Assembly (NCBI GenBank): GCA_044892525.1
Contig: CM097885.1
Coordinates: forward strand, 25,422,001 to 25,486,000
Reading direction: 5' to 3'
DNA: 64,000 nucleotides
From: Schmidtea polychroa
Lineage: Eukaryota
The notes under the pieces are model-generated. The model saw nothing but the letters and a program-made list of their open reading frames with translations, was not told the origin of the DNA and ran no database searches. Below are positions 27,913 to 28,968 of this stretch, piece by piece. The position numbers and the translations under genes were made by a program. The stretch's first letter is position 1; every line of letters starts with the position of its first letter.

Positions 27913-27968
27913 TTTTATATATTAAAATTTACACACACACAATAGGATTAATTAAATATATTATGTAA

Positions 27969-28050
27969 GCCATTATAGCGGAGTGGGAATAGGCTTCAAT
28001 TTTATCACCGGGAGTACCGGGTTCAATTTTCGATTTTGGTCAATTTTTTT
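27969..28050 (+). ncRNA. tRNA-like Pol III unit 1
   Basis: A box TAGCGGAGTGG (27976), B-box-like GGTTCAATT (28020), T7 run (28044). Confidence 0.5.
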
Positions 28051-28203
28051 CGATATTTTTTTTTCAACGGAATCTGATTCAGCGTACTGATTTTAGTATA
28101 TATATAAATTTTCAGATGGATCTGAGTGGTAGTTGTCGAGAAAATGAATAATTAATTATTAATTTCATCAATAAATAGTCACACATTAACAAATTATTTT
28201 ATA

Positions 28204-28285
28204 TTGAGTATAGCTTAGTGGTAATAGCACTCGACTGCATTGCCAATACCAATGGGTTCAAATCCCATTTCGGTCAATTTTTTTT
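28204..28285 (+). ncRNA. tRNA-like Pol III unit 2
   Basis: A box TAGCTTAGTGG (28211), T-arm ATGGG-TTCAAAT-CCCAT containing B box GGTTCAAATCC, T8 run. Confidence 0.65.
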
Positions 28286-28447
28286 CAAATTTTTTTTTAA
28301 CAAAATATTGATCAGCATACTCGATTTAGTACTTTTACAAATTTTTAAGGTGATTGGTCAACGGCAACTCTTGGAAATTTAAGATCAAAAACGTTTTAAC
28401 TTAAGCTACCAAAAATTAATATATCCAATAAAAAAATATTTATAAAA

Positions 28448-28762
28448 ATGGATGAGTTAAAAGAAAGAATGAGAAATGAATTGAATGAAGTTAAACATAA
28501 GAGAATGAAAAGAAGAGAAGAAGAAACATTAGAATACATCAAAGAGTTGATGGTAGATAATGAAAAGTATCGACATTTTTATATGAAGGCTGTAGATGTT
28601 GCTGATATAAGATTGAAGAAAATGAAACAATTACAGGAAAGAGTTAAAGAACTTGAATCGATTATTTATAGTATAAAAAATGACAAAAATCCAATCCTAG
28701 ATAGCGCAGTGGGCTACACCGGCACCGTGGTTCAAATGGATAGCAGTTCAAATCACATCTGA
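28448..28762 (+). CDS. Small coiled-coil protein
   Basis: 104-aa charged helical ORF with aaaaATG context, preceded by CCAAT. Confidence 0.55.
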   Translation: MDELKERMRNELNEVKHKRMKRREEETLEYIKELMVDNEKYRHFYMKAVDVADIRLKKMKQLQERVKELESIIYSIKNDKNPILDSAVGYTGTVVQMDSSSNHI

Positions 28763-28776
28763 GGTTAGTTTTTTTT
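28693..28776 (+). ncRNA. tRNA-like Pol III unit 3
   Basis: A box TAGCGCAGTGG (28702), GTTCAAATC (28746), T8 run (28769). Confidence 0.5.
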
Positions 28777-28968
28777 CAACATAAAATAATATTAAAAATT
28801 TGAAAATAATAGTGTGGGTATCTTAGATTTATATTTTATTTTATTTATTTTTATTTTATTTTATTTTATTTTATTTATTTTATTTATTATTTTATTTTTT
28901 AAACATAAATATGAAAAAAAAAATATTGAAACGGGTGATGGTGGCGAACCGGTAATTATCGCCACCTG

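Follow-up and report, generated by a model that had tools for sequence, protein, structure and literature searches.

Three short units near the right end of a Polinton in a 64-kb stretch of the Schmidtea polychroa genome (the window) are, judged by sequence, type-2 Pol III units, each with an A box, a tRNA-spaced B box and an oligo-T terminator. The units are real and element-wide, they appear to be partly of host ribosomal DNA (rDNA) origin, and the variation among their copies points to promoter-type constraint. We regard it as an evenly balanced proposition that these putative units are degenerate tRNA-type internal promoters that would work mainly as DNA at the Polinton end.

The element, a Polinton/Maverick of the Alpha-adintovirus-like PLA2 type, occupies positions 14821–29648 of the window (14.8 kb, AGTAGT termini). 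It has terminal inverted repeats of 686 bp, the right one (28969–29648) being 98.5% identical over 688 columns to the left one (14821–15505). On the + strand lie the protein-primed PolB (pPolB) region (15568–19863, PF03175), which consists of two ORFs (15568–17799 and 17845–19863) in a layout that recurs in sister copies, and an A32-type packaging ATPase (24396–25175, PF04665); the – strand carries an ORF with a PLA2-like domain and an rve integrase (25187–26596, PF08398 and PF00665) and the double-jelly-roll (DJR) major capsid protein (26626–27912, PF21738). An earlier sequence-only reading of this DNA had placed the units inside a Polinton, and the pPolB, integrase, DJR capsid and packaging ATPase genes together with the terminal inverted repeats bear it out. 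A 6-bp target-site duplication is a feature of Polintons/Mavericks. We found one in seven of the nine sister copies with both ends located (13 were tried) and none in the flanks of the window copy (14815–14820 and 29649–29654), which, unlike most of its sisters in this respect, is possibly a recombinant of two copies. PLA2 is described as marking the Alpha virion module of adintoviruses (PMC8502044).

All 12 ORFs of the element have an AAATG start context, and a TATCCAATAAAAAA motif precedes both the pPolB ORF (at 15543–15570) and a 104-aa ORF of no known family (at 28424–28450; the ORF itself is at 28448–28762, +). The outermost 200–300 bp differ wholly between Polinton subfamilies (L062, L068, L075 and L083–L086, beyond the capsid gene), and on their inner side these subfamily-specific ends stop at an inverted copy of the terminal 25–30 nt, as if terminal cassettes had been swapped. 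Elsewhere in the window, a second element has a 122-aa TBP-fold ORF (34370–34738, –) beside an ATPase and an integrase, and an intronless 376-aa actin ORF (50775–51905, –) and a RING-finger ORF (48129–48620, +) are found among Polinton-like pieces.

All three units are on the + strand. Unit 1 (type A, 27969–28050) has its A box at 27976–27986, a B box from 28020 that lacks the canonical 3' CC and so has an imperfect 3' end, and a T7 terminator at 28044–28050. Unit 2 (type B, 28204–28285) has its A box at 28211–28221, its B box at 28255–28265 and T8 at 28278–28285, and unit 3 (type C, 28693–28776) has an A box at 28702–28712, two B boxes spaced 16 nt (28729–28737 and 28745–28753) and T8 at 28769–28776. 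The A-box pattern TAGCNNAGTGG has exactly three matches in the 64-kb window, all on the + strand (27976, 28211 and 28702), as has the full pattern of A box, GTTCRA and T5; 500 dinucleotide shuffles of the element gave means of 0.01 and 0.002 matches, respectively, and never reached three. For random positions of the element, a T7 run falls within 5–32 nt in 2–3% of cases. The three units of about 80 nt (75–85 nt by our delimitation) are therefore present where the sequence-only reading had put them, against 0.002 expected by chance; its single tRNA-spaced B box per unit fits units 1 and 2, but unit 3 has two. Unit 1 is head-to-head with the capsid gene, whose start codon precedes it by 57 bp. 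The 3' end of the 104-aa ORF overlaps unit 3; the ORF is absent from many unit-3 copies, and in some copies the A box of unit 3 overlaps its end.

Among the four host tRNA types tested, the best match of unit 2 is tRNA-Cys(GCA), in the 5' half and the B box, and the unit is by this resemblance a tRNA-Cys(GCA) derivative that is predicted to be unable to form a tRNA. It keeps the Cys anticodon loop and a 5-bp T-arm, while its acceptor, D and anticodon stems are broken; both the perfect T-arm and the non-canonical anticodon arm had been picked out beforehand. ARAGORN at default settings calls none of the three units a tRNA, and relaxed settings draw all three with broken stems, amid many false calls. 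The Rfam tRNA model recovers unit 2 alone, at 26.7 bits with the cut-off at 29, which is the pseudo-tRNA score that had been anticipated; rDNA copies of type B score 32.4–35.8 bits, above the cut-off. For units 1 and 3, predicted folding is no stronger than in shuffles (z = 0.3 and 0.7, as compared to –3.0 for unit 2), and no pre-miRNA hairpin follows any unit, the downstream 146–148 nt having fold z values of 0.2, 0.2 and –0.7. In the part of the supplement covered of the tRNA tables for the related species S. mediterranea (PMC7962491), none of eight unit motifs occurs, as against 24 occurrences of a host Cys control motif. This negative carries little weight, since a probe from the S. mediterranea tRNA paper has no match in the genome of the window. 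The host tRNA-Cys pattern has 1,004 matches in the genome. The host genes for tRNA-Cys, -Lys and -Arg and for SRP RNA form long tandem arrays with periods of 281, 424, 278 and 593 bp (loci L147 at G000:C1:269.25 Mb, L031, L054 and L244).

The genome comprises 781 Mb with four large chromosomes, and a 29-mer from unit 2 has 1,270 exact matches in it and the unit-3 pattern 2,960. All 40 unit-2 copies fetched (40 of the first 100 matches listed, all on chromosome C1) lie in the Polinton family of the window, two of them as end fragments. So do all 20 unit-3 copies sampled (20 of the first 100 matches listed, picked as being without a nearby unit 2 or paired), ten of them immediately before pPolB at the left end. 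The 30 loci that we anchored by their capsid gene (89–97% protein identity) show the arrangements none, C, CC, AB and ABC; nine have no full unit, and eight have neither the units nor the folded stretch described below. Since the arrangement varies among capsid-anchored loci and the sampled copies all lie in the Polinton family, the units are accessory to the Polinton and are no SINE.

If the units belonged to a dispersed host tRNA-SINE or were functional tRNA genes, this would agree with tRNA-derived heads carrying A and B boxes, and related protist elements are described as carrying real tRNAs (PMC12220804, PMC6905037). We nevertheless hold this to be extremely improbable: there is no solo copy among the 60 sampled, the other copies found lie in rDNA tandem arrays or spacer-derived pieces, the units have a terminator directly after them and no tail, their stems are broken and ARAGORN is negative. 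A dispersed SINE was among the findings that the sequence-only reading had named as overturning it, and both samples have a Polinton context instead; its expectation that the A and B boxes recur in other copies agrees with the retention of units in sister copies of the family.

The distribution of the units over the family is uneven. In a capsid tree (56 of 102 usable rows, with A/B carriers thinned to every third, and with L092 and L107, labelled as without units, being carriers with a mutated unit 1), 20 of the 23 A/B carriers fall into one young cluster of 24 rows. Carriage of A/B requires six changes on this tree; loss or gain of units recurs, and the element ends must also recombine. Searches with the capsid alignment returned no loci from viral contigs and 15 from metagenomes (31–52% identity). 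Neither Rfam nor the pattern detected a tRNA-like unit in these 15, most of whose contigs are short upstream of the capsid gene, and the unit-3 pattern has no matches in viral contigs.

Units 1 and 2 are held by a 489-bp segment (27924–28412, +) that the Polinton has in common with the intergenic spacer of the host 45S rDNA, the rDNA repeats having been confirmed as 45S by the Rfam models for 18S, 5.8S and 28S. The segment is 96% identical to single-B rDNA variants (480/499 in L216 and 479/499 in L212) and matches two of the three rDNA spacers examined at 88–95%. In the host spacer, a tRNA-like array with the order D-A-B-B-B lies 3–4 kb upstream of 18S, in antisense, and has a 243-bp sub-repeat (for example L157:5543–6600 on G000:C218). 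Among 31 rDNA loci, 22 have this array, eight have D-A-B-B and one is cut; spacer variants have one B, two B, or lack the whole 2.7-kb block. About 690 host rDNA repeats carry the array. The 80 nt of unit 1 are identical in 31/31 rDNA loci and 54 Polinton copies. Nine nt of the leader found in the rDNA copies of unit 2 are missing from the window copy, as they are from 49 of the 76 copies sampled. Within the unit-2 29-mer, differences occur in most rDNA copies of B, which is why the first unit-2 sample missed the rDNA.

Near-identity to a piece of host spacer speaks against units 1 and 2 being the element's own invention. The two units, 235 bp apart, do align together with their downstream spacers (score 124 vs 31 ± 4 in 300 shuffles), and the diverged 235-bp repeat noticed earlier exists; it is, however, the sub-repeat of the rDNA spacer and not a duplication born in the Polinton.

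The transfer of units 1 and 2 very probably ran from rDNA to Polinton. The segment has sharp ends, and in rDNA no Polinton flank (capsid, ORF or terminal repeat) surrounds it. Six relatives show a clean empty site for it, and it is absent from sister subfamilies. Unit D, with 693 matches, has 14 on C1–C3 and none on C4, the other matches listed being mostly spaced like rDNA repeats; likewise, the 40 best matches to the adjoining spacer are 99–100% identical and form repeat-spaced series on small contigs or chromosome ends. We fetched 12 unit-D matches outside regular arrays: ten are rDNA or fragments of it, and two are independent spacer pieces in Polintons, of 1,758 bp (L208:2589–4347) and 695 bp (L214:2933–3627), which are 99% identical to the rDNA spacer and interrupt the pPolB of another Polinton family. 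The capture of rDNA by Polintons thus recurs, and these two pieces together with the clean empty sites in sister copies make it likely that the Polinton captured the segment as well.

A transfer in the opposite direction, with an ancestral Polinton end fragment entering the rDNA spacer and spreading there by concerted evolution, is in our judgement very unlikely. It would explain why the 5' end of unit 1 resembles the older unit 3 (only the first 21 nt are shared, 19 of 21 in some alleles) and why the segment is more diverse in Polintons (1.3% and 2.5%) than in rDNA (0.02% and 0.7%), and insertions of transposable elements are described as common in spacers (PMC10946416). However, homogenisation would be expected to keep rDNA diversity low, unit D lacks the dispersed distribution of Polintons, and the relatives have their clean empty site, while the rDNA segment has no capsid, ORF or terminal-repeat sequence next to it. 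The single short spacer variant breaks within a 126-bp repeat run with 5-nt microhomology and so looks like a deletion. A satellite near the start of C1 (L223:4800–4980) holds a more diverged relative of unit 2 (about 85%) whose flanks resemble the spacer, which suggests that the unit is old in the spacer; moreover, the tRNA scores of B are higher in rDNA, where the array is also longer.

The rDNA stretches that we fetched yielded no unit 3, which is an older resident of the terminal repeats than units 1 and 2. It is often present in both terminal repeats, pointing outward at both ends, head-to-head with the capsid and polymerase genes. At confirmed loci, to which both distances refer, its A box lies about 83–114 nt away from where pPolB begins (10 of the 20 loci sampled), and in several subfamilies with unit 3 first the distance to the capsid start is 44–47 nt. 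A GC-richer, strongly folding stretch (28925–29215, +; z = –4.6 on the + and –1.9 on the – strand), mostly within the terminal repeat, travels with unit 3 and has a left-end counterpart at 15247–15505. It matches no Rfam family and was likewise not found in the rDNA fetched; 7SL/SRP was considered and rejected, the stretch not being host SRP RNA.

Across 118 unit-3 copies, shared variants occupy 2 of 29 box columns vs 23 of 47 columns of the non-box body (p = 1e-4; conservation p-values here are optimistic because variants are linked in blocks, and the samples are biased to window-like copies). The two varying box columns are a purine-degenerate A-box position and an alignment shift. The non-box body also exceeds the flanks (11/74, p = 7e-5) and capsid third positions (46/200, p = 9e-4), whereas conservation of the boxes relative to capsid third positions attains only p = 0.05. 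Rare changes are equally frequent in boxes, body and flanks (0.0035–0.0038), and each terminator column has T in 116–118 of the 118 copies. These are indications that spreading lineages may have kept the boxes and terminator while the body of unit 3 diversified faster than synonymous sites. The number of B boxes per unit 3 ranges from one to three (1, 105 and 3 copies, respectively), duplications of the whole unit occur, and the L068 copy has B boxes with no A box. A conserved RNA fold for unit 3 was sought with RNAalifold and rejected (37 of 52 distinct two-box alleles, –4.7 kcal/mol, no compensatory pairs).

In units 1 and 2, shared variants are found in 0 of 142 body columns vs 10 of 274 spacer columns (p = 0.018; 70 of 99 loci; the loss of the 9-nt leader lies outside the body count). 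Conservation would here extend throughout the body and not to the boxes alone, a pattern that fits an RNA role or young age. It bears on the possibility, which we view as doubtful though serious, that units 1 and 2 are carried along neutrally, having been captured from the spacer by chance and having hitchhiked with the youngest burst of the family, and that only unit 3, or none, matters. One-off captures of spacer occur even where they break pPolB, the capture that concerns us included whole spacers, A/B carriers form the youngest cluster, and many relatives manage without units. Yet the bodies of units 1 and 2 have fewer shared variants than their spacers, the insert adjoins a pre-existing unit of like kind and orientation, and the boxes of unit 3 are clearly constrained.

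Returning to the promoter reading, TFIIIC binds A and B boxes and sets TFIIIB on AT-rich upstream DNA, and tDNAs are described as nucleosome-free and, in yeast, as barriers that need the A and B boxes, including one at the rDNA locus (PMC7990762). By the mechanism that we propose, the host rDNA spacer would have supplied units 1 and 2 together, as a single 489-bp copy, to join the older unit 3. It is likely that TFIIIC binds the units and that short U-ended RNAs get made. With TFIIIC and TFIIIB loaded head-to-head with the capsid and polymerase genes, TFIIIB would, by tDNA geometry, be placed 10–45 bp upstream of each unit, that is, on the DNA just before the capsid start codon, and at left ends TFIIIB-occupied DNA would lie before pPolB. 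With about even probability, what serves the element would then be a nucleosome-free platform acting like a barrier, by which the flanking capsid and polymerase promoters are shielded or tuned against host silencing; the RNA would be of secondary importance. Such a platform may either help or repress capsid transcription. In Schmidtea mediterranea, Polintons are reported among the main targets of piRNA and chromatin silencing (PMC8532177), which would apply to the host of the window by kinship at best.

A role at the level of DNA is favoured by the presence of one to three B boxes, the unit duplications, the L068 copy without an A box and the absence of compensatory pairs, and barrier or promoter tuning at both ends would fit box-only selection, B-box multiplication and position. 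Against the platform stands the dispensability of the units, given the 8/30 capsid-anchored relatives that do without units and folded stretch. Moreover, the yeast tDNA barrier seems to require the full Pol III complex (PMC7990762), and a DNA role can therefore not be neatly told apart from an RNA role. In a bolder form, which is speculative and which we rather doubt, the Polinton lineage would repeatedly recruit Pol III units of the rDNA spacer as portable anti-silencing insulators at both ends, before the polymerase and capsid genes, with the boxes fixed and the transcribed body diversifying to escape piRNAs.

The RNAs themselves might instead be the product, as 75–85-nt U-ended decoys acting in trans on La-type, PIWI/Argonaute or tRNA-modifying proteins in loose analogy to VA RNAs and TMERs; we consider this unlikely. 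The tRNA part of TMERs is reported to have activity on its own, and TMERs cluster at a genome end (PMC8223928, PMC11499242). Every unit keeps its terminator, unit 2 has its Cys anticodon loop, T-arm and z of –3.0, and the non-box positions of unit 3 vary more than flanks and capsid third positions, a hypervariability that would reflect escape from piRNA targeting. Transcription-linked mutation is, however, another possible cause of raised variation in unit 3. No conserved fold and no downstream hairpins were found, B-box multiplication would disrupt any RNA shape, and about 690 host rDNA repeats can already make RNAs 1 and 2, to which extra copies would add little.

In the open literature (repeat-database entries aside) we found neither animal Polintons with degenerate Pol III units nor tRNA-like arrays in a 45S spacer described; Pol III heads in terminal repeats, spacer capture, viral tRNAs, SINE boundaries (PMC8136502) and divergent tRNA-like elements are already known. 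How large virus-like elements stay active under strong piRNA and heterochromatin silencing is an open question, and insulator recruitment, if true, would help to explain the expansion to thousands of Polinton copies. The barrier idea is testable by ChIP, ATAC and small-RNA sequencing per copy class, as the genome holds thousands of natural variants with zero to three units and one to three B boxes at known positions. The analysis also brings to light a second feature, the degenerate tRNA-like Pol III array in about 690 host rDNA spacers, and the repeated movement of spacer DNA from rDNA into Polintons. As such units escape standard tRNA finders, they may be present but overlooked in other Polintons.

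VA RNAs are about 160 nt long and strongly paired, with a long apical stem, so that the Polinton units, at 75–85 nt, have half their length; to our knowledge, invertebrates lack PKR. Adenovirus VA RNAs, described as binding PKR or RIG-I, and the MHV68 TMERs, clustered at the genome end, are like the Polinton units in being type-2 Pol III units of a dsDNA virus (PMC11499242). The Polinton units differ in having no cloverleaf, pre-miRNA hairpin or long stem, and two of them are host rDNA sequence; with neither downstream hairpins nor, for units 1 and 3, a fold better than shuffles, the analogy to VA RNAs and TMERs drawn in the sequence-only reading lacks its hallmarks. Polinton-like viruses, virophages and MELD viruses, a related virus group, also have sequences related to tRNAs (PMC12220804, PMC6905037, PMC8502044), but their tRNAs pass ARAGORN or Rfam and are described as codon-supply tRNAs, whereas the Polinton units do not pass. 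In B-box barriers (tDNAs bound by TFIIIC), A and B boxes act as DNA beside another gene (PMC7990762), and trypanosomatid snRNA genes have divergent, head-to-head tRNA-like promoter elements (PMC5814962); both were shown for chromosomal genes, whereas the Polinton units are known from sequence and their neighbours are presumably Pol II genes. Pokey, a piggyBac element of Daphnia, is likewise a DNA transposon with captured 200-bp rDNA-spacer repeats upstream of a gene; it inserts in 28S rDNA, whereas the Polinton is dispersed, and the available text on it mentions no Pol III units (PMC10946416). The Helenus (tRNA-derived) and Cassandra and Ajax (5S-derived) TRIMs likewise have in their terminal repeats a degenerate small-RNA gene of which mainly the Pol III boxes are conserved (PMC10886601). 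They are described there as non-autonomous retroelements whose promoter is usable for genomic RNA, whereas the Polinton units belong to a DNA-replicating, capsid-coding element, point outward and end at once in oligo-T.
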